The position numbers were made by a program, and so were the translations under genes. Below are positions 13,514-27,410 of a stretch of DNA of 29,160 nt, piece by piece. Below the pieces are notes generated by a model that was not told the DNA's origin, searched no databases, and saw only the letters and a program-made list of their open reading frames with translations. Source of the stretch: an uncultured Desulfovibrionales bacterium (GTDB taxonomy: Bacteria > Desulfobacterota > Desulfovibrionia > Desulfovibrionales > Desulfonatronovibrionaceae); assembly GCA_964531185.1 (NCBI GenBank), contig CAZHCY010000001.1, positions 1,757-30,916 on the forward strand. Direction: 5' to 3'. Every line of letters starts with the position of its first letter. The stretch's first letter is position 1.

Positions 13514-14707
13514 ATGGAAAAAATTGAACTTAGAAAAGTGAGCAAAATTTTTGGGGAGCATCCCAAAAAAGCTCTGGCCATGCTCCAGGAGGGCAGGAAA
13601 AAGGATGAGATCCAGGCCAAAACAGGCTGTGTAGTGGGAGTGGATCAGGCCTCCTTTGATGTCAAGGAGGGCGAAATAGTGGTGGTCATGGGTCTTTCGG
13701 GCAGTGGGAAATCAACTCTTGTCCGGTGCATCAACCGGCTGTTTGAACCCACCTCTGGAGAGATAATCGTTGACGGCCAGGATGTCAGAAGACTGGACAA
13801 GGACCAGCTGCGGGAGTTCCGGAGAGAGAAGTTTGGGATGGTTTTTCAGAATTTTGCTTTGTTTCCGCATCGAACAGTGCTCAACAATGTGGAGTTCGGC
13901 CTGGAAATTCAGCACGTGGATCCTGAAAAACGCAGGGAAAAGTCAGAAAAGGCACTGGAGCTGGTCGGCCTTAAGGGATGGGGCGAGAAGTTTCCTTCCG
14001 AGCTTTCAGGCGGAATGCAGCAGCGCGTGGGTCTGGCCAGGGCTCTGGCTCTGGATCCGGATATTCTGCTCATGGACGAGGCCTTCAGCGCCCTGGATCC
14101 GCTCATCAGAAGAGACATGCAGGATGAGCTGATAACCTTGCAGCAGACCATGCGCAAAACCATTGTTTTCATCAGTCATGATCTGGATGAAGCCCTGAAG
14201 CTGGGGGACAGGATTGTACTGATGAAAGACGGGGCTGTAGTCCAGATAGGTACCCCTGAGGACATTCTGACCAAGCCGTCCAATGAATATGTGGCCAAAT
14301 TTGTTGAAGAGGTGGATATTACCAAGGTTCTCACAGCGGAATCCGTTATGAAGAAATCCCAGGATGTGGCCTATCTCAGCAGTGACGGACCACGGACAGC
14401 CATGCGCAAAATGAAGAAAAACGCCATTGCTTCCCTGTTTGTCGTGGACAAGGAAAACAGGGTGGAAGGGCTGGTTTTTGCGGATGATGTGGCCCGTTTA
14501 ATTGAAAAAGGAGAGAAAGATTTAACCACAGTGCTTAAAAGGGATATTCAGAGAGTGACTCCGGAAACCCCTGCTTCTGAGTTGTTCCCCATAATGCAGG
14601 ATATTTCCTATCCTGTGGCAGTGGTTGATGAAAATAAAAAGCTCAAGGGGATAATCGTCAAGGGACTTCTGATGGCGGCTATTGCTGAGCGTGGAGGAGA
14701 ATTATGA
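13514..14707 (+). CDS. proV: Glycine betaine/proline ABC transporter ATP-binding subunit with tandem CBS domains
   Basis: VMGLSGSGKSTL, MVFQNFALFPHRTV, LSGGMQQRVGLARAL, MDEAFSALDPLIR..MQDEL, two C-terminal CBS repeats. Confidence 0.95.
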   Translation: MEKIELRKVSKIFGEHPKKALAMLQEGRKKDEIQAKTGCVVGVDQASFDVKEGEIVVVMGLSGSGKSTLVRCINRLFEPTSGEIIVDGQDVRRLDKDQLREFRREKFGMVFQNFALFPHRTVLNNVEFGLEIQHVDPEKRREKSEKALELVGLKGWGEKFPSELSGGMQQRVGLARALALDPDILLMDEAFSALDPLIRRDMQDELITLQQTMRKTIVFISHDLDEALKLGDRIVLMKDGAVVQIGTPEDILTKPSNEYVAKFVEEVDITKVLTAESVMKKSQDVAYLSSDGPRTAMRKMKKNAIASLFVVDKENRVEGLVFADDVARLIEKGEKDLTTVLKRDIQRVTPETPASELFPIMQDISYPVAVVDENKKLKGIIVKGLLMAAIAERGGEL

Positions 14708-15537
14708 GTTTTGAACTGCCAAGACTGCCCCTGGGAGATGGTATAGAAGCTGTCCTTGATTTTCTGGTCAGGAACCTGGCCTTTGCCACCAAGGCTTTTT
14801 CCACAGTGGCGGATCAGGGAATACGTCTCATGGAAGCAGCTCTGATGTTTTTGCATCCAGTGGTGCTGATTATTGTGTTCACTATGCTGGTGTTTTATCT
14901 GACCAGGCAGAAAGGGGTGACGGTGTTTACTTTTCTGGGGCTGGGTCTGATATGGAACCTGGGGCTGTGGTCGGCCACAGTGAGCACCATATCCCTGGTC
15001 CTGGTGGCCACCCTCATTGCCATTGCCATAGGCATTCCCATAGGCATATTCTGCGCATTGAACAGTTACGCCTATAAGATTGTCCGCCCTGTTCTTGATT
15101 TTATGCAGACCCTCCCTGCTTTTGTATATCTTATTCCAGCCATACCCTTTTTTGGGCTGGGAAGGGTGGCAGCGATTTTTGCCACAGTCATTTTTTCCAT
15201 GCCCCCGGCCATCAGGTTCACCACTTTGGGTATCAAGCAGGTGCCCAGAGAACTTGTGGAATGCGCAGACGCTTTTGGAGCAGACAAGTGGCAGAAACTG
15301 TTCAAGATCCAGCTTCCCTTGGCCAAAACCACCATAATGGGCGGAGTCAATCAGACCATCATGCTTGCTTTGTCCATGGTGGTTATTGCGGCCATGATCG
15401 GGGCCAGAGGCCTTGGAGGCGAAGTCTGGAGAGCTATCCAGAGGCTTCAGCCTGGAGCCGGTTTTGAAGCCGGCATAGGTATTGTTATTGTGGCTATTGT
15501 TCTGGACAGGGTTTTACAGAAGCTGGCCAGACAATAG
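14704..15537 (+). CDS. proW: Glycine betaine/proline ABC transporter permease
   Basis: PVLDFMQTLPAFVYLIP, IRFTTLGIKQV, QLPLAKTTIMGGVNQTIMLALSMVVIAAMIGARGLG; ATGA overlap with proV. Confidence 0.95.
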   Translation: MSFELPRLPLGDGIEAVLDFLVRNLAFATKAFSTVADQGIRLMEAALMFLHPVVLIIVFTMLVFYLTRQKGVTVFTFLGLGLIWNLGLWSATVSTISLVLVATLIAIAIGIPIGIFCALNSYAYKIVRPVLDFMQTLPAFVYLIPAIPFFGLGRVAAIFATVIFSMPPAIRFTTLGIKQVPRELVECADAFGADKWQKLFKIQLPLAKTTIMGGVNQTIMLALSMVVIAAMIGARGLGGEVWRAIQRLQPGAGFEAGIGIVIVAIVLDRVLQKLARQ

Positions 15538-15570
15538 AGTTGATAAAAACCAAACCGAAGGAGGCTTACT

Positions 15571-16416
15571 ATGAAGAAAGGAATGCTAGTATTGTTTATG
15601 CTGGCCATGCTGGTGGGTTTTGGTCCGGTCAAGTCCGATGCCAAGGAAACAGTGACCCTGACCTATGTGGAATGGGACTGTGCCGTGGCCAGCACCTATG
15701 TTGCCCAGGCCGTGCTTGAGGACAAACTTGGCTATAACGTGGATGTTCTTCCGGTAAGTGGTGCTGCAATGTGGCAGGCCCTGGCCACAGGCGATGCCGA
15801 TGCCATGGTCACTGCCTGGTTGCCGGTCACCCATGCCCAGTATCTTGAGCAGACCAAAGATGATGTTGAAGAAGTAAATGTGGTCGCCAAAGGAGCCAAA
15901 ATCGGGCTGGTAGTGCCTGATTATGTCTCCATTTCTTCCATTGAAGAACTGAATGCCAATGCAGACAAGTTTGACGGCAAGATTGTCGGTATTGATCCCG
16001 GCGCAGGCATCATGGGACTGACTGAAGAGGCTCTGGATGAATACGGGCTGAGCAATTTTGAGCTGGTGGAAGGAAGCGGAGCCACCATGGCCGCTGCACT
16101 CCAGGACGCCATCCGCAATGAAGAATGGGTTGTGGTCACAGGCTGGTCTCCTCACTGGAAGTTCGGCCGCTGGGGCCTCAAATACCTTGAAGACCCCAAA
16201 GGCGTTTATGGTGAAGAAGAATACATTGCCACCATTGTCCGTGATGATCTGAAAACTGACATGCCTGAAATATATGAATTCTTTGAAAAGTTTTCATGGA
16301 ACCAGGACTATATGTCTGAGGTCATGGTCTGGAATCAGGAAGGATCTGATCCGGCTGACAGCGCCAGGCGCTTTATCAAGGAAAACCCTGATCTGGTTCA
16401 GGAATGGCTGCCCTAA
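15571..16416 (+). CDS. proX: Glycine betaine ABC transporter substrate-binding protein (OpuAC-type)
   Basis: Signal peptide; YVEWD, AWLPVTH, IVGIDPGAGIM, VVTGWSPHWKF, LKYLEDPKG aromatic-box motifs. Confidence 0.93.
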   Translation: MKKGMLVLFMLAMLVGFGPVKSDAKETVTLTYVEWDCAVASTYVAQAVLEDKLGYNVDVLPVSGAAMWQALATGDADAMVTAWLPVTHAQYLEQTKDDVEEVNVVAKGAKIGLVVPDYVSISSIEELNANADKFDGKIVGIDPGAGIMGLTEEALDEYGLSNFELVEGSGATMAAALQDAIRNEEWVVVTGWSPHWKFGRWGLKYLEDPKGVYGEEEYIATIVRDDLKTDMPEIYEFFEKFSWNQDYMSEVMVWNQEGSDPADSARRFIKENPDLVQEWLP

Positions 16417-16679: not shown

Positions 16680-19600
16680 TCAACCAAGTTTTTTTAATTG
16701 GCCAATATTTTGCTTCAGTTCGGACCAGACCGGCAAGTGTTCATGACATGAGGCCAGGACGAATTCTGCGGTGGCGTGAATTTTCAGCCAGCGGGGCCGA
16801 ACCGGCAGGGTGTCTTCACTGAGATATTTATCCAGGGTCTGGGTGCGCAGGTAGCCGTCCTTTTCCATATAGACATTCCATATCCTGGACTTTTTGGCCA
16901 GATCAGCCTTGGCATTTCCGGTGGTCTGCGCCCAGCACTCCACAGCCAGGTTCATGACACGCACTGCCAGGCGCCGTTTGTCAGAATTTTTTTCCTTTAT
17001 GGACAAGCCATCTGCAAAGCGCTCAATCAAGGCGCGAGCGGTTTTAAGATCTTCAGCAAGAGATTCTGGCGTATGGATCCGGTCGTGGTATCCGGCGGTC
17101 AGGGCGTCTTCCAGATCCTGAAATATCCTGCGGTGGGCGTTGAATTCCTCAAGCATATCAACAAGAGCCGCAAAGTCCGGGCCAATGTCTTGCTCATTTT
17201 TTTCATTATTCAGTGGACAAAAGATCATCACGAACAGGGTTTCCTCCTCCATTTCCAGGCAGGTGACCCGAACATGGCAGGTACAGTGTTGACCGGAAGC
17301 CTTTAGAAGGCTCTGATGCGCAAAGTTCCCTGTTTTCTTTCCGCTTGGTCCGGTATTGCTTAGAAATGACAATAAATCTCCGGATATTTTGCCTTGAGGA
17401 TTCTGTTGATCCGGTAAAAGCCCGGCCAGAGGGCGGCCAAGCAGGCTGTGGACTGTTTGTCCCGACAGAGCCTGGAAGGCCTTGTTGCAGAAAGTGATTT
17501 CGCGACTGAGGTTTACAGCCAGTATGGCTTCATCAAGGGAGTTAAGCATGCCCGAGAGCCGGTGCTGCATAAGCCATAAATCCTGCTCGGTTTCGCGGCG
17601 AAGGACCAGTTCCTGCTTCAGGCGCATGTTTTCGGTAAGCACTGCATAAGCCTGTTTGAGTTTGAGCAGGGTGCGGACCCTGGCCAGGAGTTCTTCCCGG
17701 GAAAAGGGTTTGGTCAGATAGTCGTTGGCTCCGGCTGAAAAACCGGCCACAATATCTTCGACCCGGTTTTTGACTGTAAGCATGATTATCGGCAGAGACT
17801 GTGCCGAGTGCTTTTGCCGCAGTATCCTGCAGACTTCATATCCGCTGGTGCCGGGCATCATGATGTCCAGGATGACCAGGTCCGGACAATCTCCGTCCTG
17901 GATCAGATCCAGGGCATGGCTTCCGTTTCGGGCTGTTTTGAAGCTGATTCCGGCCAGCCGCAGGCAGGAGCCGATCACATGCAGGTTCACAGGCTCGTCA
18001 TCCACAATCAATGCCTGGTATATCCTGCCCCGGGCGCAGCCCGGATCGGCCGAAACATGTTCAGGTTCAAGCGGCAGGACCATGTTGAATTTTTCAGGGA
18101 GAGGTCCTGCTTGTTTTGGTGGAACATCCCCCTGCACGGCTACGCTGCTTGCCGGCAGGGTGAAAGAGAAAACGCTCCCCCGGCCGGGCTGTGAATCCAC
18201 ATGGATGCTGCCGCCGTGCATCTCTACCAGACGTTTTGTGATGGCCAGGCCCAGGCCGGTGCCTCCTGTGGACCTGGTATGCGCTGAAGCAAGTTGTTCG
18301 TGGGAGTTGAAAATTCGTTTCCGGAACTCAGAGGGAATACCGATACCAGTGTCTGCAACGGATACCCGGGTGAAATCGCCTGAATTCCGGGCTGAAACCG
18401 TGATGGCTCCGGATTCTGTGTACTTGATGGCATTGCCCACCAGGTTGAACAGGATCTGTTCCAGCCTTTCCGGATCTGCTTCAACTGCAGGGAAATCGGG
18501 TTCAATGGCATTGATAAGTTTCAGGCCTTTATCCATTGCCATGGCCTGTGAGATGTCCAGGACACCCCGAGCCGTGTCGCAAAGGTTGACCCGGGATTTG
18601 TTTAAAATAATGTCCTGGTGGGTAAGCCGCGAGAAATCCAGGATTTCATCCACTAAGCAGGAAAGTCGTTTTCCGCTGTGCGCAAGCAGTTTCAGGTGGT
18701 TTCCGGCCTCTGCCGACAGCTTGCCTCCTGCCCCGGCTAAAAGCGTCTCTGCGATACTGACGATGCCGGCCAGTGGAGTTTTCAGTTCGTGGGCAGTGTT
18801 GGCCAGAAACTCATCCTTGAGCTTGTTCATGTCCATAAGTTTCAGATTGGCTTTTTCCAGATTGCCGGAGAGTTTTTCAACCCTGGAAAAGGCATCGGCA
18901 AAGGAAGCGGAGATATAAAAGGAGTAGGACAGGATAAAGATGAACACCCCGTAAGGCGCGAAAGATATGGTGCTGGTGATGTTCAGATCAAAAACCATTA
19001 CATCTATTTCAGAGAGAGCCAGGGCCATATATCCGGGAATGAGCATAAGTGCGTTTTTTTCCCGGCGTAGCAGGTCCAGGGCAAAGGCCGCGAAAAGATA
19101 GGCGTAAACGGCCCTGGTGACAAGGAAGTAGAGAAACGGTCCAGGTCCGTAGGCATTGGGCGGGGTGACCAGGATATAGATGATGTAAACCGCTCCAAGG
19201 AACACGACCAGTCGGTTCACGGTTCTGCTGTATTTTTTGGGAAACAGGACATGATAGAATATGACCATCAGGGGAATGGTCAGTCCAAAGGGCAGAAGTG
19301 AAAAATTGATGTACCATTTCCAGGACAGGTCCGGGGCAATGGTGGACATGAGAAAGCCGGAAGACGGGCTGAACAGAGTGACTACGCCCCAGAAAAAACA
19401 GAACAGGCCGAAATACAGGTTTGCGGTTGCGCACCGTCGCCTGGAAAAAAGCACCAGATGATACAGGGCCATGATAAGCAAGGCACCGGCCATAAAGGCC
19501 CCGGAGAAACGGCGGACATCCATCATGCCTTGAATTTGTTCTCCGGTTCCCAGAAAGATACTGGATTTTATCCCGCCCTGGACATTGTGGTGATTGGAAA

Positions 19601-20168
19601 CACTAAGGACGATTTCCAGAGAATCACCATCCACCCCGAAACGGGGCATCAGGATATGGTCTTCAGGCGATTCCTGGGATAGATCTGTACCTGGTTTTCC
19701 GCTGGATGCCACAAGTGTCCGGTTGACGCTTACCTGGCATACAGACAGTATCCCGCTGACCAGCAGGGACAAGGAGGGCTCAGCTAATGAGTCAGGAAGC
19801 CGGACCCGGAGCAGATAAGTCCCGTGGCCATGGGCTGAAAGGGACTCGCCAGCAAAAGTTTTGCCGCGCCATATCCCGGGAACATGGAAAAAATCCTGCT
19901 TTTCCCGGCTGGACAGGACCATGGCAGCAGGATCAAGCAATTCCCCCCAGATGAATTCCCACTCTCCGTCCAGCCTGAACGGTCCTTGGGAAAAATCCCA
20001 TTCTGTAAGATCAAGTACGCCGCCATGAGCCTGGGGCGAATCCATGGAAGGGGCGCAGCCCATGATCCCTGCTAAAATGATAAAAAGGGCAATGAATCGG
20101 GCGTGAACAGGTACGGGACTGTAATGAGCAAAAGTCAGATCCTGGCTTGCAGGCATTTTCTTTGGCAT
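16680..20168 (-). CDS. 7TM-DISM-type hybrid histidine kinase (extracellular beta domain-7TM-HisKA-HATPase-REC-PAS) with C-terminal ChiS-like DNA-binding domain
   Basis: Lipobox-like IMGC; GGVLDLTEWDF..LDGEWEFIW; about 7 TM helices; EFLANTAHELKTPL; NLVGNAIKYT; DTGIGI; GTGLGL; REC with LVILDIMMP and YLTKPF; PAS (LNSLDEAILAVN..FCNKAF); C-terminal IWNVYMEKDGYLRTQTLDKYL..LPVRPRW. Confidence 0.85.
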   Translation of the reverse strand: MPKKMPASQDLTFAHYSPVPVHARFIALFIILAGIMGCAPSMDSPQAHGGVLDLTEWDFSQGPFRLDGEWEFIWGELLDPAAMVLSSREKQDFFHVPGIWRGKTFAGESLSAHGHGTYLLRVRLPDSLAEPSLSLLVSGILSVCQVSVNRTLVASSGKPGTDLSQESPEDHILMPRFGVDGDSLEIVLSVSNHHNVQGGIKSSIFLGTGEQIQGMMDVRRFSGAFMAGALLIMALYHLVLFSRRRCATANLYFGLFCFFWGVVTLFSPSSGFLMSTIAPDLSWKWYINFSLLPFGLTIPLMVIFYHVLFPKKYSRTVNRLVVFLGAVYIIYILVTPPNAYGPGPFLYFLVTRAVYAYLFAAFALDLLRREKNALMLIPGYMALALSEIDVMVFDLNITSTISFAPYGVFIFILSYSFYISASFADAFSRVEKLSGNLEKANLKLMDMNKLKDEFLANTAHELKTPLAGIVSIAETLLAGAGGKLSAEAGNHLKLLAHSGKRLSCLVDEILDFSRLTHQDIILNKSRVNLCDTARGVLDISQAMAMDKGLKLINAIEPDFPAVEADPERLEQILFNLVGNAIKYTESGAITVSARNSGDFTRVSVADTGIGIPSEFRKRIFNSHEQLASAHTRSTGGTGLGLAITKRLVEMHGGSIHVDSQPGRGSVFSFTLPASSVAVQGDVPPKQAGPLPEKFNMVLPLEPEHVSADPGCARGRIYQALIVDDEPVNLHVIGSCLRLAGISFKTARNGSHALDLIQDGDCPDLVILDIMMPGTSGYEVCRILRQKHSAQSLPIIMLTVKNRVEDIVAGFSAGANDYLTKPFSREELLARVRTLLKLKQAYAVLTENMRLKQELVLRRETEQDLWLMQHRLSGMLNSLDEAILAVNLSREITFCNKAFQALSGQTVHSLLGRPLAGLLPDQQNPQGKISGDLLSFLSNTGPSGKKTGNFAHQSLLKASGQHCTCHVRVTCLEMEEETLFVMIFCPLNNEKNEQDIGPDFAALVDMLEEFNAHRRIFQDLEDALTAGYHDRIHTPESLAEDLKTARALIERFADGLSIKEKNSDKRRLAVRVMNLAVECWAQTTGNAKADLAKKSRIWNVYMEKDGYLRTQTLDKYLSEDTLPVRPRWLKIHATAEFVLASCHEHLPVWSELKQNIGQLKKLG

Positions 20169-20358
20169 GAGCGTGATCTTTCACTGAAATGTTTCCTCCT
20201 CATTTTCCAATAGAAACCAGCAGCTGATATGGACATCCTGAGGAAACGGATAATGATGGAAAGATCTTTATATGGTTTTGGCCAGAGAAGAACAAGCTTT
20301 CACTCATTAGAAACCAGACCATTTTTTTGCCCCGGAATGGTTCACGTCCATGGATATT

Positions 20359-22089
20359 TCAGTCCCTGAATTTCAATGTAACGGTACATTCTCCGTTTCT
20401 GGTCTCAACCCTCACATCATCGGCAAGATGATCAACCAGAAATCCTGCCATGGCTTGAGCCCCTTTGACTTCATTGAACACCTGATGAGGATCCGGCCGA
20501 GTCTCCGGAATTATCAGCGGGCGTCCCATGTAAACCACAACTATCCGGCAAAGATATTCATCAAAAACCGCTCTAAATTCCAGCTCTTTGCTGAACGAGT
20601 CCATTAATTTGTAAGCCTGAATGGCATCCAGAAGTTCATATGTAGCATGGTTGAGGCGACGGATAACCTCGACCCTGGCTCCCCATTGATGCCCGAGATG
20701 CCAGAGTATTTCATTTATTTTCTGAGGCCACTTGTTATCCATGTCAATTTTTCTGGTTACTGATTTGTGAATCTTCAGGCGAAAAAGCGTGTTCAGTCCT
20801 ATGGCTACCACCAGGGTGGCCGCCACAGTGGTAGATAGAGGCGAAAATATTATGTTTTCATCGCTGTCACGTGCTATGTACAGCAACTCATGACCCATGC
20901 CGGCTATGAGAGAAAGGCCTATTGTGATGCTTTTGCGTGAGTCAAGAAGACGTGAGGTGATTATCTTTATGCCGCCTACAATGATAAAAGAAGCTACAAA
21001 TATCAGTACAGCTCCGATTACAGGCATGGAAAGAGAAATCCAAAATGATGTAAAAGGTGGAAAAAACGCCAGGGCGATAAAAAGCCCTCCAAGAACATAT
21101 GCCACTATACGGCTGGTGACTCCACTGGCCTGTGCAAGGCCGATGGCGCCGCCGCTGGCGGTCTGGGCCACTCCATTGATCAGGGAACCCAGGGCATTGG
21201 TTATCCCTTCGGCCAGAAGGCCCCGTTTGATCCCTTCCATGTCAGGCCTTTTCCATGAGGAGTCATTGGCCCTTTGGGCAACGGTCAGAACGCCAAAGCA
21301 GTTGAATGAAAGAGCTAGTCCCAGAAGAACAAAATGCGGCAGCATTTCCCAATTAAAAGACCAACCGAACCGGGCTATCGGCGGCAATGCCAAGACTGGA
21401 ACCTGTGAGATTTCATTCATAAGCGATTCATTGACAACCCCTTGCCAGACCGCAAAGATCTGCCCCACAAGCAAACCGGCAAAAACCGCAAAAGTTCTGG
21501 CTTTTCCATGGCCCCACACATTTACCTCCACGATGACCGAAAGGGTTAGAAGCCCCGTCAGCAGAGTGCGGGGCTCTCCTTGAAGAGGGGTGTCAAGTGC
21601 CAGAAAAGCCCTCATGCCGATAAGGCCAAGGCCAAGTCCGAGGATTAAAACTATGAGCCCGGCAATTTCGACGGGGAAAAAGGGGCGCAGCCTTATGATA
21701 AGGCGCGAAGCTGCAATCTGAACAAAGGCGGCAATGGCCATCATGCCAAAGGCAAGGTCGAGACCTCCCATATTGACAGCGGCGATGGAGGCTGGAAATG
21801 CAATGGCGGACGTATGCATGGGGCTGAACAATCCGATGCCGATTCCGCCCCGGTTTAAGGCCTGCAGGATAACACCACAGCCGGCAGCCACCATTGTCAG
21901 GGCGACCAGGCCTGCTGCTCCGGCAGCGTCAAGTCCGGCCTGACGGGCAAGAAGCACCGGCAGGGTCATTATGGATGCAAGAAAAGCCAGCTGCTGTAAA
22001 GCAACCATAACGGTCATGCCCCAGGGGGGACGTTCATTAATCCAGTATGTAATTCCGTCAGGCCTGAGAGGCCTCTGGTTTTCACTCAT
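20359..22089 (-). CDS. NCS2 (xanthine/uracil permease) family protein with C-terminal RsbW/HATPase_c_2-like extension
   Basis: YWINERPPW, IGIGLFSP, FFPVEIAGLIV, GLLAEGITNALGSLING, GVTSRIV, PVIGAVL topology; about 135 extra C-terminal residues. Confidence 0.75.
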   Translation of the reverse strand: MSENQRPLRPDGITYWINERPPWGMTVMVALQQLAFLASIMTLPVLLARQAGLDAAGAAGLVALTMVAAGCGVILQALNRGGIGIGLFSPMHTSAIAFPASIAAVNMGGLDLAFGMMAIAAFVQIAASRLIIRLRPFFPVEIAGLIVLILGLGLGLIGMRAFLALDTPLQGEPRTLLTGLLTLSVIVEVNVWGHGKARTFAVFAGLLVGQIFAVWQGVVNESLMNEISQVPVLALPPIARFGWSFNWEMLPHFVLLGLALSFNCFGVLTVAQRANDSSWKRPDMEGIKRGLLAEGITNALGSLINGVAQTASGGAIGLAQASGVTSRIVAYVLGGLFIALAFFPPFTSFWISLSMPVIGAVLIFVASFIIVGGIKIITSRLLDSRKSITIGLSLIAGMGHELLYIARDSDENIIFSPLSTTVAATLVVAIGLNTLFRLKIHKSVTRKIDMDNKWPQKINEILWHLGHQWGARVEVIRRLNHATYELLDAIQAYKLMDSFSKELEFRAVFDEYLCRIVVVYMGRPLIIPETRPDPHQVFNEVKGAQAMAGFLVDHLADDVRVETRNGECTVTLKFRD

Positions 22090-22182
22090 GAGTTATCTTT
22101 CAGCTTTATGAATTGCCTGCATTAAAGGCGCTTGCCGCCAGACTTATTAAAAGCGGAAATAAAAAATTAAGTCCTTCCATCA

Positions 22183-22599
22183 CTATTGAGTAAGCACGGC
22201 CCGCACGAATACATCATGCATCTTGTTGCCACAGTGCGCCTCGCCGTTGCCGAAGTTCATCCCCCAGGCACAGGCCGGATAATCAGGTTCAGTGGTGGAC
22301 GACCAATACCAGTCGCTTTTCACGTGCATGGCCTGGAGACAGGGCGAGTGGTACAACCCCTCAAGTTCACCCCTGCTCGGCAGCCGAAAGCCGGAATGTC
22401 CGCTTAATGTTCGTCCCTGGACATGACGCATAGCGTCGTCCCAGTTCATGGGACCATCTGAATCCTTCTGCCATACCAGTCCCGTGGCGTTGTCCGTCAC
22501 TGTCCTGTCTCCATTGTCCACGCAGCGGCCGGCATGGACACTGTCTGACCACAGCAAGCAGAATACAGAAACCAGGGCAATCAGCAGTGTTTTTTTTAT
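22183..22599 (-). CDS. DUF1566 (Lcl C-terminal domain) secreted protein; probable ATA start
   Basis: DNGDRTVTDNATGLVWQK, NWDDA, FRLPSRGEL, WYWSSTT, AWGMNFGNG, VRAV; in-frame extension upstream of the ORF call gives (I/M)KKTLLIALVSVFCLLWSDSVHA. Confidence 0.8.
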   Translation of the reverse strand: MKKTLLIALVSVFCLLWSDSVHAGRCVDNGDRTVTDNATGLVWQKDSDGPMNWDDAMRHVQGRTLSGHSGFRLPSRGELEGLYHSPCLQAMHVKSDWYWSSTTEPDYPACAWGMNFGNGEAHCGNKMHDVFVRAVLTQ

Positions 22600-22636: not shown

Positions 22637-23737
22637 CTATTGGGCCGGAATGGTCAGCTGCAGGGCACTGGGAGCCTGGTCGTCCTCCAGCAGGGTAAAA
22701 GCCAGCATAATAAAGGAAAAGACCCTTTTGGTTTCCAGATCGCTGTCATCCACCCAGAACCAGTGGCCGCGATACCGGACCGAGGTAAAGGCTTGATCCG
22801 GCCGGGTTGATGAAGACTTGACCGCGACAGCGTCCAGACCTGCTTTCTCAGAATGCCGGGCAGCTCCTGGAATGGCCCGGCCCTGAGTCAAATCCTGTTC
22901 AGGAATTTGCACCCGGGCGGCCACGGCCGCCAGCATCTGCATCAGGGAAAATGTCTGCAATGCGATCATGTTGTGGCTGTCAGCCGTGGGAAAGCCGGAA
23001 GTCAGCATATACTCGTTCCGGGCAGGCTCCAGTCCAAGCAGGTCTTGCAGTTCTCTGACCAGAGCATTGGTTTCCCCTGAGGGATACCGTCCTCCCAGAG
23101 CCAGCATCAGGCTGGGAGATTCTCCGGGCTGGAGTACCCGGCTGGTCACATGCACCGCATCCAAGCCCTGGAGCCTGGAGAAAATTTGCACCACTTTTTG
23201 AAAATCAGACTGGACCGGAACATGGGCGCCGGGAATATGGGCTTCGTTGCGCAGGCCGTTGATGCTGCGCACACTAAGTGTGAACAGGAACCGGGCTGAG
23301 ATTCCTGAATTCAGGCCCAGCAGCACATTGCGCACCGGAACAGGCGAAATTATACCCTTGCGGAACGCGGCACCGGTCAAGGGCCTGTAGGTGATGGTGG
23401 GGCGATCAGTATATTTGCCAGAGATCCCGAGATCCAGCTTGCTGGAGTCACTGGAGCCGGACAAGTCGAACATGGACCGTGAAAATCCCATATTCCCCCC
23501 TGTTTCCAGGGAATAGGCCGCAACAATGTCTCCCACGTCCATGAAGAACAGCGGCTCCACATAGCGGATCTTGACGATATTGAGCAGGATCTGCTCTTTC
23601 CAGGACTGTGTGATGGAGGCATTGTACCCGGTTCGATCCGATGTCATTTTTGCCGGGCCGATGGATGCGCACCCGGAAAAAAGAACCAGCACGCATATCA
23701 ACAGAATCCGGCTTGCTCCCGAATATATCTGCGTCAC
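22637..23737 (-). CDS. Conserved hypothetical lipoprotein
   Basis: Lipobox LFSG-C; motifs SWKEQILLNIVKIRY, DRPTITYRPLTG, VRYRGHWFWVDDSDLETKRVF; ATGA overlap with the upstream hydrolase stop. Confidence 0.7.
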   Translation of the reverse strand: MTQIYSGASRILLICVLVLFSGCASIGPAKMTSDRTGYNASITQSWKEQILLNIVKIRYVEPLFFMDVGDIVAAYSLETGGNMGFSRSMFDLSGSSDSSKLDLGISGKYTDRPTITYRPLTGAAFRKGIISPVPVRNVLLGLNSGISARFLFTLSVRSINGLRNEAHIPGAHVPVQSDFQKVVQIFSRLQGLDAVHVTSRVLQPGESPSLMLALGGRYPSGETNALVRELQDLLGLEPARNEYMLTSGFPTADSHNMIALQTFSLMQMLAAVAARVQIPEQDLTQGRAIPGAARHSEKAGLDAVAVKSSSTRPDQAFTSVRYRGHWFWVDDSDLETKRVFSFIMLAFTLLEDDQAPSALQLTIPAQ

Positions 23738-25038
23738 GGCAATACCCTCCAGGAAAAGACCTCATCCAGCCAGTCAAACAGAACCTGTCCCACCAGACTG
23801 CGATTTTCCAGGATGCAGTGGTTGGCCGCGCCCTCATTGGCCGGAGTAACCACCATCATTTTCAAGGCGTTGGGGAAATTGTCCATGGCGATTTTCTGCT
23901 GGCGCTGCACCTCCAGGCTTTTGTATTCGCCCTGGCCCACGATGATCAGTGCCGGAGCATCTATCCGGGCCGGGTCAAAGGTGTTCCCCTTGTTCGCCTC
24001 AATCAGGGCGGAAGGCTTGTCCTGGGGTACCCCGTACCGCCAGCAGATGGACCTGACCACGTCGCGGTGAAAATCGGACCAGGCCTCCATCTCCTCCCGG
24101 GTGGCCAGGGCAGCGGGCATGGTGGCGAACAGCGGATGGGCGTCCACCACGGCGGAGGTCATTACAACTGCTTTGATGCGCGGGTCGTGCATGGCAGCCT
24201 GGGGCACGAACAGCCCGCCGCCGCTGAATCCATAGGCGGCCAGGCGCTTTTCATCCACTCCGTCCAGGGTCAAAATATGATCCACGACCTCCATTAAGGC
24301 AATGTTTGTGTCTGTGCGGAAAACCCGGCCCTCAAAGGGCAGCAGTCCCTGACCGGGCAGATCCACTGTGACGAAATTGTACCCCCTGGCATGGGCCTGC
24401 GGGGCGATGAAAAAGAACAGATCCTCGGCAAAGGTTTCACCGCCGCCGATCATGAGCAGGGTCGGGGCGTCGTTATTGTCTTTGGCCGCGGGCCGGAAAT
24501 ACCCCGGCAGGACCGTGCCCTCAAAAGGAACTTCAAAATACTCCAAAGGCGGGTCCAGCAGTTTGCCGGTCTCGCGCATCAGGCTGCGCACCTTCATGCT
24601 GGTGGGTTTGAACAAAGGATTGTCCGGAAGCATGGAGATGACGGAAAACCGGTAATAGTTCACCGCGCGCAGCAGCTGATTCCTGGCGCTGACCACATGC
24701 CCGTGGGCCAAAGATTCCCGTCCGCGGGCCTCCACGCGCTCGGCCAGGGCCAGCCATTCCCGCTGCCAGCTTGCCGCATCCCCGTCCTTGATTTGCGAAG
24801 CTGCGTAGAAGGCTTCCCCGATCTCCGCCCCTCCGGTGGACACCGAGTCCAGGATCAGGTTCCCGAAATGGAAGTCCATGTCTCCGTCGTCAAAAAAATA
24901 CGAAAACTCGGTGGCGTGCATGTCCGAGGTTTCCAGGGCCTCACCGGAAGCCTGGACGCTTGTGCTCCACGTCTGCAAAACAGCCACGGCCAGCAGACAG
25001 ACAAGACATCTGGCAGCAAAATATATCACACGTTTCAT
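23734..25038 (-). CDS. Secreted alpha/beta hydrolase (DHPON hydrolase/FrsA-like, S9-clan fold)
   Basis: Sec signal MKRVIYF...SVQA; EVPFEGTVLPGYF, GGGETFAED, DLPGQG, nucleophile GFSGG, ANHC His motif; SD AAGGAGG before ATG 25038. Confidence 0.85.
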   Translation of the reverse strand: MKRVIYFAARCLVCLLAVAVLQTWSTSVQASGEALETSDMHATEFSYFFDDGDMDFHFGNLILDSVSTGGAEIGEAFYAASQIKDGDAASWQREWLALAERVEARGRESLAHGHVVSARNQLLRAVNYYRFSVISMLPDNPLFKPTSMKVRSLMRETGKLLDPPLEYFEVPFEGTVLPGYFRPAAKDNNDAPTLLMIGGGETFAEDLFFFIAPQAHARGYNFVTVDLPGQGLLPFEGRVFRTDTNIALMEVVDHILTLDGVDEKRLAAYGFSGGGLFVPQAAMHDPRIKAVVMTSAVVDAHPLFATMPAALATREEMEAWSDFHRDVVRSICWRYGVPQDKPSALIEANKGNTFDPARIDAPALIIVGQGEYKSLEVQRQQKIAMDNFPNALKMMVVTPANEGAANHCILENRSLVGQVLFDWLDEVFSWRVLP

Positions 25039-25087
25039 GATCGATCCTCCTTGTTGGCTGGAAATCTTTTTTGCGGTAATCAAAAGA

Positions 25088-26821
25088 TTACGGCTTGGCC
25101 CGCTGGTCCAGCCAGTTCAGAATGCGCTCGCTGGAAACCACAGGCGCTCCGAGCTGGCAGTGGAACTGCCCGCCCTGGGAGGCGTCAAATTCCAGGTATG
25201 TCTTTTGGCTGTTCAGGGCATTGAACACCTTTTTGGCCTGGGCATTGGACCCGGCAACCTGGTCCTGGCTGGAATTGACCACCAGCGTTTCGGTCTGGAT
25301 ATCGCCGATGACGTCGGCCAGGGTGTATTCCTGCAGTTTCCGGAACAGCTCACAGGGGGTTGCGGCCTGGAATGTCCAGAGCATCTGGGTGATAAATTGA
25401 TGCACATCCGGGCGTTCATCCATTTCCCGGAGTACAAGGGCGTCAATATCAGCCGTGCAACCGCCGGACTCCACGGCCTGGCGCACCGCGTCCGGGAATT
25501 TGGTCATGGTTCCGTCGAACACGCTGTACACCCCGCCGTCCAATATTCCCCACTGGATTCGTTTTTCAAAGGCCAGGGCCCGGGGCACCAGGTATCCGCC
25601 CATGGAATATCCCAGCAGGGCAATGCGCTCCGGGTCCACGTCCGGGCGGGTCAGGGCGTAATCCACCACGGGCGTGACCACGTTTTCCCAGTCATGCCGG
25701 AACGCCAGCTTCTGGAGGCTGATCATCTCGCCCTGGCCCGGGCCTTCGAAAATGAGGCAGTTGTATCCGCGCTGCACGGCCTGGGCCGCCAGAATAAAGT
25801 AGAGGTCCTCGGCAGTAGCGTCCAGACCGGTCTGGATCAGAAGCAGCGGCCTTTTTTCGGAGCTGTTGTCCGGAGTGATAAAATAACCGGGCAGGGTGGT
25901 CTGTTCATAGGGAATGCGCACCGGTTCGATCAGGCCGCCGGAAAGGCCCGCGGCCTTGAGAAAGGTATCCCGGCCGTTTTGCCAGGCGATCAGGCCTCGC
26001 GGGTCCTTGTCGTACAAGTATATGGACGCGGCCCGGAAATAGTTGGTGGCCCGGAAATAGGCCTGCTTCGCGGCGATGTCATGACCTGCGGCTACAAATT
26101 CATCGGCTGTGCCCCGGACTTTCAGGGCCATGGAGTTCCAGGACCGGTACCAGCTTTCCTGGTCAAAATCCTCCACCTGGCCGGTTATGGTCAGCAATTC
26201 GCCCAGGTCCGCACCGCCCGAGGCGATCAGGCCGAAGCGCCACAGGCTCTGAAAGACAAAAGCGGGGTCATTGAACAGAAATCCGCTCATGTTCCGCTGA
26301 TGAATGTCGCGCGGCTCCTTGTCGGCCTGCCCGCGGTAGTTGTCCCAGTGTTCCACTTTTCCACTGATATAGACATGGCCCTGAAGGGGGAAATGGGTGT
26401 GGATAAAGACCCACTCCTTGTCCACGCCGGTCAGGTTTTCCAGAGAATCGGCAATGGCGGTCATCATTCCAGCCACGTCCTGTTCGCTAAAAAAACCAGG
26501 AACGTACAGGTCCACGAAAATGGGTTTGTCAGAGACCGGCTCGCCCATGCAGTGGATGGCGTCGAAGGTCTGCCAGTAGTAGGTCAGAAACCGCTCGTCG
26601 ATCCCGGTGGCCGCAGTGACGTCCCGGCTGAGCTGAGCCAAAACCTTCGGCACGTCCAGGTCTGAACGGGCATAGGTGATTCTGACCATGGGGTCGGCCG
26701 GGTCAATGCCGCCCGCTCCCCATGCCTTGTCCCGGCCTGTTAGAGGTGATAAAAGAAGACTTAAGATGAAAATTAAAACTCCAGGCAAAAGTATTAAAGA
26801 TAGCCCGGAAAAGGATTTCAT
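25088..26821 (-). CDS. Secreted alpha/beta hydrolase with N-terminal tautomerase/MIF-like domain
   Basis: Hydrophobic N-terminal signal; residues 44-159 show a beta-alpha-beta x2 pattern; RIPYEQTTLPGYF, TGLDATAED, FEGPGQG, GYSMG, SQDQV, FHCQ. Confidence 0.8.
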   Translation of the reverse strand: MKSFSGLSLILLPGVLIFILSLLLSPLTGRDKAWGAGGIDPADPMVRITYARSDLDVPKVLAQLSRDVTAATGIDERFLTYYWQTFDAIHCMGEPVSDKPIFVDLYVPGFFSEQDVAGMMTAIADSLENLTGVDKEWVFIHTHFPLQGHVYISGKVEHWDNYRGQADKEPRDIHQRNMSGFLFNDPAFVFQSLWRFGLIASGGADLGELLTITGQVEDFDQESWYRSWNSMALKVRGTADEFVAAGHDIAAKQAYFRATNYFRAASIYLYDKDPRGLIAWQNGRDTFLKAAGLSGGLIEPVRIPYEQTTLPGYFITPDNSSEKRPLLLIQTGLDATAEDLYFILAAQAVQRGYNCLIFEGPGQGEMISLQKLAFRHDWENVVTPVVDYALTRPDVDPERIALLGYSMGGYLVPRALAFEKRIQWGILDGGVYSVFDGTMTKFPDAVRQAVESGGCTADIDALVLREMDERPDVHQFITQMLWTFQAATPCELFRKLQEYTLADVIGDIQTETLVVNSSQDQVAGSNAQAKKVFNALNSQKTYLEFDASQGGQFHCQLGAPVVSSERILNWLDQRAKP

Positions 26822-26913
26822 TGTTACCTTCCTTGTTTATAATCTGAGTGTCTTTGCTTCTGTTTTTGCTTTTACCTCATCATACATTCCGAGCAGCATA
26901 CAGTTGTCAATCA

Positions 26914-26938
26914 GAATTCACGTGAATTCCCGTGAATT
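26914..26938. promoter_or_regulatory. Candidate operator: perfect 16-bp palindrome plus 10-bp-phased direct repeat
   Basis: GAATTCACGTGAATTC (26914-29); CGTGAATT at 26921 and 26931; lies 3 nt upstream of a minus-strand TTGACA (26910-05). Confidence 0.45.
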
Positions 26939-27089
26939 TTGACGTATATTCTTAAAATATTGTGATTTATGAATCATGTTACATGACAGGCCTGTAATCT
27001 CTCGGTCGGGTCGCAGCGGCTTTGGATGGAGAATCCTGTTGAAGGAGAAGCTGCTGGTGCAACAAAGAGAAGATGCTTGCAGAAAAGAC

Positions 27090-27122
27090 GAAAGCCCCGG
27101 GCAGTGCATGCCCAGGGCTTTC
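27090..27122. terminator. Intrinsic terminator-like hairpin
   Basis: GAAAGCCC-C-GGGCA gtgca TGCCC-A-GGGCTTTC inverted repeat downstream of the rhuM remnant. Confidence 0.6.
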
Positions 27123-27164: not shown

Positions 27165-27410
27165 CTACCCGGTGTGAACAGTTTCGGCGTGGGCCTTGGC
27201 GATTTCCGCCGTAACCTTTCCCTTTCCTTGCAGGATTTGCCGATCGCTGAACTCTAAAAAAGCGTCGAGCCGCTTGGCCCAGTCCTCCATGGTCATCGGA
27301 ATCTTGCGGCGGGCGCGGTCCTCGGCCAGATCGAGATAGGCGTTGACGATTCGGCCAAGGGACTCCAGTTCGTCACGGGTTCGGATCAGTTTTTTGTCGC
27401 GATCAGTCAT
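27165..27410 (-). pseudogene. rhuM: RhuM-family (virulence RhuM / DNA-binding) gene remnant
   Basis: DELESLGRIVNAYLDLAEDRARRKIPMTMEDWAKRLDAFLEF..ILQGKGKVTAEIAKAHAE is the recognisable C-terminal part of RhuM proteins, but the ORF is only 81 aa and lacks the usual EFEKY tail. Confidence 0.75.

Follow-up and report, generated by a model that had tools for sequence, protein, structure and literature searches.

A Membrane Sensor Protein with a ChiS-Type DNA-Binding Domain and Its Candidate Operator in an Uncultured Sulfite-Reducing Bacterium

Does a hybrid sensor kinase that ends in a ChiS-like tail control transcription from the membrane, and at which promoter? This question is raised by a gene for a protein of 1,162 amino acids (aa) (P0001; positions 16680 to 20168, minus strand), recognized from the list of open reading frames (ORFs), its translation, and Pfam. 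The gene lies in a 29,160-nucleotide (nt) stretch of contig CAZHCY010000001.1 (the whole stretch is referred to here as the window) from an uncultured member of the Desulfovibrionales (assembly GCA_964531185.1). The initial annotation of the window had proposed that this kinase terminates in a DNA-binding domain (DBD) of the type found in Vibrio cholerae ChiS. The source genome is a 2.59-Mb metagenome-assembled genome (417 contigs; 92% complete) of the Thermodesulfobacteriota that carries dsr genes (dsrA, 574 bits versus a cutoff of 393), and the host is a sulfite-reducing bacterium. We consider it quite probable that the protein is a membrane-anchored ChiS-family transcription factor that works like a one-component system and activates an operon running from 26821 to 20359.

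The C-terminal domain and the protein that carries it

The tail comprises residues 1063 to 1162 (D1063 to G1162; 100 aa; window 16683 to 16982, minus strand; stop codon at 16680 to 16682) and matches exactly the tail originally quoted, with DKRRLAVRVMNL, RTQTLDKYL, RPRW, and AEFVLASC in this order and KKLG at the very end. A phmmer comparison of residues 980 to 1162 with all PDB sequences returned a sole significant match, the V. cholerae ChiS DBD (PDB 7KPO; E value, 1.3e-14; 57.7 bits), in which residues 1064 to 1161 (window 16686 to 16979) were aligned with positions 8 to 104 of the 108-residue chain. The domain therefore ends one residue before the stop codon, at the extreme C terminus. An AlphaFold2 (AF2) model built from 28 homologous tails (predicted local distance difference test [pLDDT] score, 89) predicts a helix-sheet-helix fold with a beta-hairpin at model residues 63 to 71. 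Such a fold is a trihelical bundle with a beta-hairpin between helices H2 and H3. In a Foldseek search across the PDB, the model matched 7KPO (E value, 6.7e-9; template modeling [TM] scores, 0.77 and 0.90, the latter on the target; root mean square deviation [rmsd], 1.7 Å; 33% identity) and nothing else below an E value of 0.6 (next match, 0.65). The proposed resemblance to ChiS was thus recovered in both sequence and predicted structure. It is significant over at least 90 residues of the ChiS DBD, which is how members of the family were delimited previously (Klancher et al. 2021, mBio, PMC8092284).

Neither Pfam nor NCBIfam contained a model that matched the tail, including when the tail was searched alone. 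An exhaustive phmmer search with the tail retrieved 899 clusters (50% identity) at E values of ≤1e-3 and 504 at ≤1e-10, and the domain was at or near the C terminus in nearly all of the best 150 of the 899 clusters. Five ChiS residues are essential for DNA binding (R1068, R1074, K1078, R1090, and R1092), of which K1078 and R1090 were rated very well conserved and R1074 and R1092 only "somewhat conserved" (Klancher et al. 2021, PMC8092284). A basic residue is retained at three of the five positions (R1068 to K1103, K1078 to K1114, and R1090 to R1126). Judged by its sequence and predicted fold, the tail is a true ChiS-family DNA-binding domain, and sequence-specific DNA binding by it is predicted.

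The tail follows a lipoprotein signal, a jelly-roll sensor, a 7TMR-DISM module, HisKA, HATPase, a receiver (REC), and PAS, in that order; the Pfam domain order and the exact translation bear out the HisKA-HATPase-REC-PAS arrangement described at the outset ahead of a tail of about 100 aa. HisKA (residues 451 to 517) and HATPase_c (565 to 673) together span window positions 18150 to 18818, the receiver (PF00072; residues 720 to 832; E value, 7.8e-30) spans 17673 to 18011, and PAS (PF00989; residues 870 to 928; E value, 9.7e-8) spans 17385 to 17561, all on the minus strand. The kinase motifs are complete (H460, T464 at H+4, N-box at 578 to 584, G1 at 606 to 611, and G2 at 636 to 641), as are those of the receiver (acidic pocket D723/D724, D768, T798, and K820). 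A Pfam scan of the kinase did not detect a HAMP domain. Between PAS and the DBD, the AF2 model predicts a long helical linker, with a helix over residues 1039 to 1083.

The input half of the protein (also on the minus strand) begins with a lipoprotein-type signal peptide that ends at lipobox Cys38 (20055 to 20168). A hydrophobic stretch followed by G/A-C is kept in most homologues in an alignment of 23. The public gene call (P0002; 1,127 aa) begins at M36 and thereby loses the signal peptide; because the lipobox-type N terminus is conserved in homologues, the true start is likely M1, with M5, the next in-frame methionine, as an alternative on sequence grounds. The extracytoplasmic sensor domain (approximately residues 39 to 220; 19509 to 20054) was modeled as a beta-sandwich (AF2 model of residues 1 to 240; pLDDT, 87.5), for which the best PDB matches were the jelly rolls that bind sugars at the N terminus of GH2 enzymes (Foldseek E values, 7e-7 to approximately 1e-6; probability, 1.0). 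We do not call this domain DISMED2 because no Pfam model, the DISMED2 hidden Markov model (HMM) included, matched it at an E value of ≤5 and because hhalign against a Pfam-recognized DISMED2 (P0115) gave a probability of 5%. The 7TMR-DISM membrane module (PF07695, 7TMR-DISM_7TM; residues 224 to 419; 18912 to 19499) scored 54.1 bits versus a cutoff of 29, and hydropathy indicated a signal segment plus about seven transmembrane spans between residues 221 and 427. The lipobox-like N terminus, the carbohydrate-binding-like beta-sandwich, and the seven transmembrane helices that take the place of the ChiS periplasmic domain had all been proposed at the start, and all of them stood.

The suggestion that this input is new did not survive. 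7TMR-DISM proteins are among the most abundant ChiS-DBD architectures (Klancher et al. 2021, PMC8092284, legend to Fig. 5A), about 80 "Desulf" rows are among the matches listed in Data Set S1 of the same study, and the ChiS-type domain had already been noted in gamma- and deltaproteobacteria (10.1101/2020.01.10.902320). In JGI annotation, "sensor histidine kinase ChiS" is already the name given to the nearest proteins of this kind. In the literature searched, only Klancher et al. (2021) mention 7TMR-DISM and ChiS together, and later ChiS papers all concern Vibrio. The kinase is thus a member of an already catalogued class, with Desulfovibrionaceae and Desulfobacteraceae homologues among its taxa. 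That group was catalogued without a proposed operator, target, or function, whereas a candidate operator, a predicted target operon, and a domain series are added here.

A tandem element and the operon behind it

The candidate operator-promoter (26905 to 26936, minus strand) was identified from the sequence and a comparative scan. It consists of TTCACG (26936 to 26931), TTCACGTG (26926 to 26919), a gap of 8 nt, and TTGACA (26910 to 26905), and its full sequence is TTCACG-GGAA-TTCACGTG-AATTCTGA-TTGACA. It is located before the first of two hydrolase genes and downstream of a strong terminator-like hairpin (14 pairs; 27090 to 27122, minus strand) that ends the preceding unit and delimits the promoter region. 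The pattern TTCACG-N4-TTCACGTG-N8-TTGACA occurs exactly once in its own 2.59-Mb genome (≤2 mismatches). A −10-like TATGAT (26879 to 26884, minus strand), read from the sequence, lies 20 nt past TTGACA, with the same geometry in one of the related loci (L002). Two regions had been put forward at the outset as possible binding targets. That at 26850 to 27000 holds this strongly conserved operator-like element, while that at 20169 to 20358 is without a convincing site. The latter contains only a degenerate TTCAGT...ATCACG pair near the start codon, and scanning the genome for the operator together with its TTGAC box recovered nothing there.

Five genes follow the element, all upstream of the regulator gene and on the same strand (minus). 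The first (25088 to 26821) encodes a 577-aa exported, FrsA-like alpha/beta hydrolase with a GYSMGG elbow. The second (23734 to 25083) encodes a secreted FrsA-like hydrolase of approximately 435 to 449 aa with a GFSGGG elbow, and its start is likely the ATG at 25038. Both carry GxSxG elbows, were assigned by Pfam, and have SMU_737 (PDB 3fnb) as their closest PDB relative (E values, 3.7e-23 and 2.4e-41, respectively). The third gene (22637 to 23737) encodes a 366-aa lipoprotein, recognized by the lipobox in its translation; Pfam and PDB searches gave no relative of it. Orthologues of all three occur behind the operator elsewhere, and synteny between the three genes and the regulator gene is kept in metagenomic relatives. 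The genes that come after the regulator in Solidesulfovibrio are instead FrsA-like and COesterase genes.

The remainder of the cluster (20359 to 22557) is variable and was assigned by Pfam. It comprises an Lcl_C/DUF1566 ORF (22183 to 22557) and a gene for a 576-aa Xan_ur_permease-family protein (20359 to 22089). An Lcl_C ORF also follows the hydrolase-hydrolase-lipoprotein triad in one relative (L010), where 48% of the query aligned at 39% identity. Behind the operator of the other loci, an orthologue of the permease was never seen, and the variable slot holds an Abhydrolase_3 gene in L002 and nothing in L001. The Lcl_C/DUF1566 ORF of the window starts at TTG, and no signal peptide was seen in it, unlike in its exported neighbors; it may be truncated or misstarted.

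To place the element in a wider context, 64 genome loci encoding related tails were compared. Allowing ≤3 mismatches, a pattern scan located TTCACG-N4-TTCACGTG-N8-TTGAC in 21 loci that represent several genera; 15 of these sites were exact, and the flanks had diverged. Position weight matrix (PWM) scores were 32 to 54 at 19 scored sites (≤2 mismatches) and L014, and the weakest three-mismatch site (L023) scored 22; the best score among shuffled loci was 10.4. Besides the window, the element is beside the regulator gene in L002, L004 (Solidesulfovibrio), and L005 (D. aminophilus). Cultured relatives that carry such a regulator include, in addition to D. aminophilus, Desulfovibrio sp. 7SRBS1 (L009) and Desulfatitalea alkaliphila M08but (L013). 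Six fairly close relatives (L011, L012, L016, L017, L018, and L026) had no operator site within the DNA examined, and two others (L001 and L007, the latter being the closest genome relative) are cut off by contig ends where the operator would lie. The distance from the site to TTGACA is invariant in all class A loci. Across the whole family, a more degenerate pattern, TTNACN-N4-TTNACN, had a density of 0.389 per kb in the 500 nt adjoining either end of DBD genes versus 0.014 per kb elsewhere (approximately 28-fold).

The site is placed in several ways relative to the regulator. In 14 loci, it is directly past the regulator's stop codon and aimed at the next gene. In the window, L002, L015, and, weakly, L023, it heads an upstream operon that ends with the regulator. 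It is on the strand opposite the regulator in three more loci (divergent in L027 and L028; approximately 5 kb downstream and pointing back in L025). The genes behind it include an orthologue (52 to 89% identity) of at least one triad gene in 12 of the 21 loci and of all three in 7, and the other targets are autotransporters, a YadA-like adhesin, an FG-GAP protein, and Collar-domain proteins. Because the downstream targets vary between loci, the DBD gene is the only constant partner of the site.

Two further observations concern these targets. In sister loci (L005, L027, L028, L029, L014, L025, and L072), surface proteins replace the hydrolases, i.e., autotransporters with PATR or Ig repeats, a YadA-like trimeric adhesin, FG-GAP and Collar-domain proteins, and a giant PA14 protein. 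The hydrolase genes are 65 to 89% identical across families (Desulfonatronum, Desulfatitalea, and Desulfovibrio), while the regulator is 47 to 72% identical (L008 to L023). This higher conservation of the hydrolase genes than of the regulator hints that the hydrolase cassette spread horizontally.

More distant DBD genes are accompanied by tandems of the TTTAAC type with the same geometry. In L072, the recognition segment of which is closest to that of ChiS, TTGACG occurs twice before the giant PA14 protein gene. In L075, a genuine ChiS-type locus (HAMP-HK-REC-DBD, where HK is the histidine kinase unit, beside GH3 and an SBP_bac_5 ABC operon), the hexamers are TTAACG and TTAACA, followed after 10 nt by TTGAGT. 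The main texts of the ChiS papers from 2020 and 2025 do not print the binding-site sequences; the 2021 primer table does. There, the 60-bp Pchb probe used in electrophoretic mobility shift assays contains two TTTTGACGT sites, and the binding-dead mutant carries GACGT changed to GAtacT in both (PMC8092284). The validated ChiS core (TTGACG) and the independently derived hexamer of the present loci (TTCACG) are therefore one base apart. This likeness is the strongest argument that the tail would bind the tandem at 26919 to 26936.

An alternative reading of the site as a palindrome (GAATTCACGTGAATTC in the window) was rejected: only its CACGTG core recurs, and the distant classes keep the direct repeat without a palindrome. 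Residue 1106, in the beta-hairpin (window 16851 to 16853), differs with the hexamer class: Y predominates in the TTCAC class (18 of 20 DBDs) and W in the TTAAC class (11 of 12), and the protein of the TTGACG class has F. From this distribution, residue 1106 may be a specificity position. A residue code for the third base of the hexamer was not established: Y1106 versus W alone separates the classes, with two exceptions, and is a lead only. In a separate group (L062 and L064, with L065 and L067 by similarity), soluble proteins of approximately 380 aa carry both a GerE/LuxR helix-turn-helix and, at the C terminus, a ChiS-type DBD, and so have two DNA-binding domains. TTTAAC tandems adjoin these genes. 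The tandem is downstream of the gene in L067, whereas L062, L064, and L065 have it upstream, on the other strand.

Proposed mechanism and its alternatives

ChiS binds Pchb directly from the membrane, its last 106 aa being necessary and sufficient, and its two sites at Pchb need to be in helical phase with the −35 box (10.1101/2020.01.10.902320). We propose that the lipid-anchored jelly roll and the 7TMR-DISM bundle would perceive an envelope or extracellular cue and that the signal would pass through the HisKA-HATPase-REC-PAS unit and the long helix to the C-terminal helix-sheet-helix DBD. The DBD would then bind the pair of TTCACG hexamers, which are in phase (10 bp apart) and keep a constant distance to the TTGACA downstream of them. 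Such spacing of direct repeats, with one helical turn between them and an unvarying distance to a −35-like box, is compatible with activation through contact with RNA polymerase, as has been proposed for ChiS, and we infer that binding activates the operon, possibly with read-through into the regulator's own gene. The predicted output would be two exported FrsA-like serine hydrolases, a lipoprotein, a DUF1566 protein, and a permease-like protein.

Phosphorylation of the ChiS receiver lowers DNA binding, and His and Asp mutants remain active (10.1101/2020.01.10.902320). In the present protein, autophosphorylation at H460 and transfer to D768 would, on this precedent, probably hold DNA binding down, with the signal relieving it, so that the HK-REC unit would be a modulator and not the output path. 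The relatives fall into three length classes that share the operator, i.e., 533 to 552 aa (sensor-7TM-DBD; L010, L013, and L019), 650 to 790 aa (plus PAS; L006, L020 to L022, and L025), and 1,100 to 1,200 aa (plus HK-REC-PAS). The two shorter classes have no HK-REC, and most of these forms also keep at least part of the hydrolase operon. On sequence comparison, the shorter relatives are a natural deletion series. Because these HK-REC-less forms share the operator and because the ChiS His/Asp mutants stay active, the comparison suggests that HK-REC modulates, rather than carries, the signal path from the membrane module to the DBD.

Several points weigh against this mechanism. The assumed sign of the phosphorylation control has a single protein, ChiS, as its precedent, and bench data on the ChiS-DBD family come from Vibrio ChiS alone. 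Two of the essential ChiS residues are replaced in the tail (R1074 by Q1110 and R1092 by L1128), with R1108 two residues before the former and K1129 adjoining the latter. The orthologous promoters that define the element are nonindependent samples. The distance from TTGACA to the best −10-like hexamer is 19 to 21 nt in many class A loci, which is too long for standard sigma-70, and TTGACA may thus not be a −35 box; a standard sigma-70 scan (16- to 18-nt spacer) did not call an operator-linked promoter. Finally, 190 nt separate the permease gene from the regulator gene, which may have its own separate promoter.

Were the protein a conventional hybrid kinase, phosphate would pass via an Hpt protein to a separate response regulator, and the tail would be a dimerization or partner-binding module. 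All kinase and receiver residues are intact, a sigma-54 (NtrC-type) response regulator gene is in the window at 183 to 1595, and DNA binding by this subfamily is a prediction. Such an arrangement is nevertheless very improbable: the protein and its neighbors lack an Hpt domain, a distance of 15 kb separates the NtrC-type gene, which adjoins flagellar and lipid A genes, from the kinase gene, and the relatives without HK-REC retain the tail, the operator, and mostly at least part of the operon. We also regard it as quite unlikely that the tail binds DNA at real targets elsewhere and that the TTCACG tandem is the site of another factor or a promoter element borne by a cassette. The element stays with the DBD gene beside unrelated genes (autotransporters, YadA-like adhesin, FG-GAP, and Collar-domain genes) and persists while the regulator architecture changes, no other regulator gene is common to these loci, and distant DBDs are paired with hexamer variants (TTTAAC or TTGACG) of like geometry, TTGACG being the validated ChiS core. 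What speaks for another factor is that site and protein are linked by co-occurrence only, that the CACGTG core of the second hexamer could be read by other regulator families, and that the strongly conserved hydrolase genes may move horizontally together with their promoter.

The protein might instead occupy the operator without activating through RNA polymerase, either as a repressor or as a promoter tether for another activator. ChiS itself acts at PtfoR mainly by bringing the promoter to the membrane for TfoS (PMC11856585), and the layout of the promoter is uncertain given the 19 to 21 nt from TTGACA to the −10-like hexamer. This possibility is unlikely in light of the position of the site upstream of the −35-like box at an invariant distance, as activators typically have it and in parallel with the phase requirement at Pchb, and no gene for a second membrane regulator is conserved in these loci.

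In addition to the membrane transcription factor proposed for the window, the comparison allows a broader proposal, which we judge to be evenly balanced between true and false. One recognition scheme may hold for the whole family, i.e., an in-phase tandem of TTNACG located a constant 10 nt upstream of TTGAC, in which specificity would depend on the third base (C in the present loci and A or G in other clades). The members with 7TMR-DISM, from sensor-7TM-DBD through the form with PAS to that with HK-REC-PAS, would be a deletion series made by nature, all driving secreted-hydrolase or adhesin operons from the membrane, with HK-REC as an optional brake. If true, the shared scheme and the deletion series would provide a ready comparative system for studying how membrane-tethered regulators reach and activate promoters.

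Relation to known regulators and neighboring genes

V. cholerae ChiS (VC0622), a chitin sensor, is the only member of its DBD family studied at the bench. The present protein shares with ChiS the HisKA-HATPase-REC-PAS-DBD order, the DBD at the extreme C terminus (33% identity; TM score of the predicted fold, 0.90), the H+4 threonine (T464), a candidate hexamer close to the validated one, a site in fixed phase with a −35-like box, and a regulon that appears to be small and local. The two differ in their input, target, and recognition segment. ChiS senses with a periplasmic domain that is linked to HAMP and binds CBP, the chitin-binding protein, while a lipoprotein signal peptide, a jelly roll, and 7TMR-DISM are found here; ChiS targets chb, in contrast to the secreted-hydrolase operon; and QTR in the ChiS recognition segment corresponds to RTQ here, with R1092 lost. 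The protein is not a ChiS orthologue in the sense of a chitin sensor, as it has no HAMP domain and its neighbors are hydrolases, a permease, and OpuA, not chb or SBP_bac_5. The current labels of such proteins are "response regulator," "ATP-binding protein," or, misleadingly, "ChiS," and "membrane transcription factor" would fit better. The locus and its relatives offer a predicted operator, a local secreted-hydrolase target operon (adhesins in sister loci), and variants with and without the kinase-receiver unit, in a family whose DBD is covered by no Pfam or NCBIfam model.

Two other groups of regulators invite comparison. Pseudomonas aeruginosa RetS and LadS are 7TMR-DISMED2/7TMR-DISM hybrid kinases that control surface or secreted functions. 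They likewise have a signal peptide, an extracytoplasmic beta-sandwich, 7TMR-DISM, and HK-REC, but they are without a DBD and act via the GacS network, and the sensor described here is unmatched by the DISMED2 HMM. The Bacteroides HK-REC-AraC hybrids and ToxR, CadC, and TfoS also unite a sensor and a DNA-binding output in one membrane protein, and regulators of this group often control polymer degradation loci; their DBD folds (AraC and OmpR-type winged helix) are unrelated to that of ChiS.

Two further features flank the region. A glycine-betaine ABC transporter of the OpuA/ProVWX type (13514 to 16416, plus strand), composed of an ATPase with CBS domains, a permease, and an OpuAC binding protein, converges on the kinase gene, and this adjacency is not conserved beside homologues. 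On the far side of the terminator-like hairpin, an 81-aa ORF (27165 to 27410, minus strand) is a C-terminal remnant of a Virulence_RhuM gene that matches only positions 173 to 239 of the 252-position profile (E value, 4e-21).

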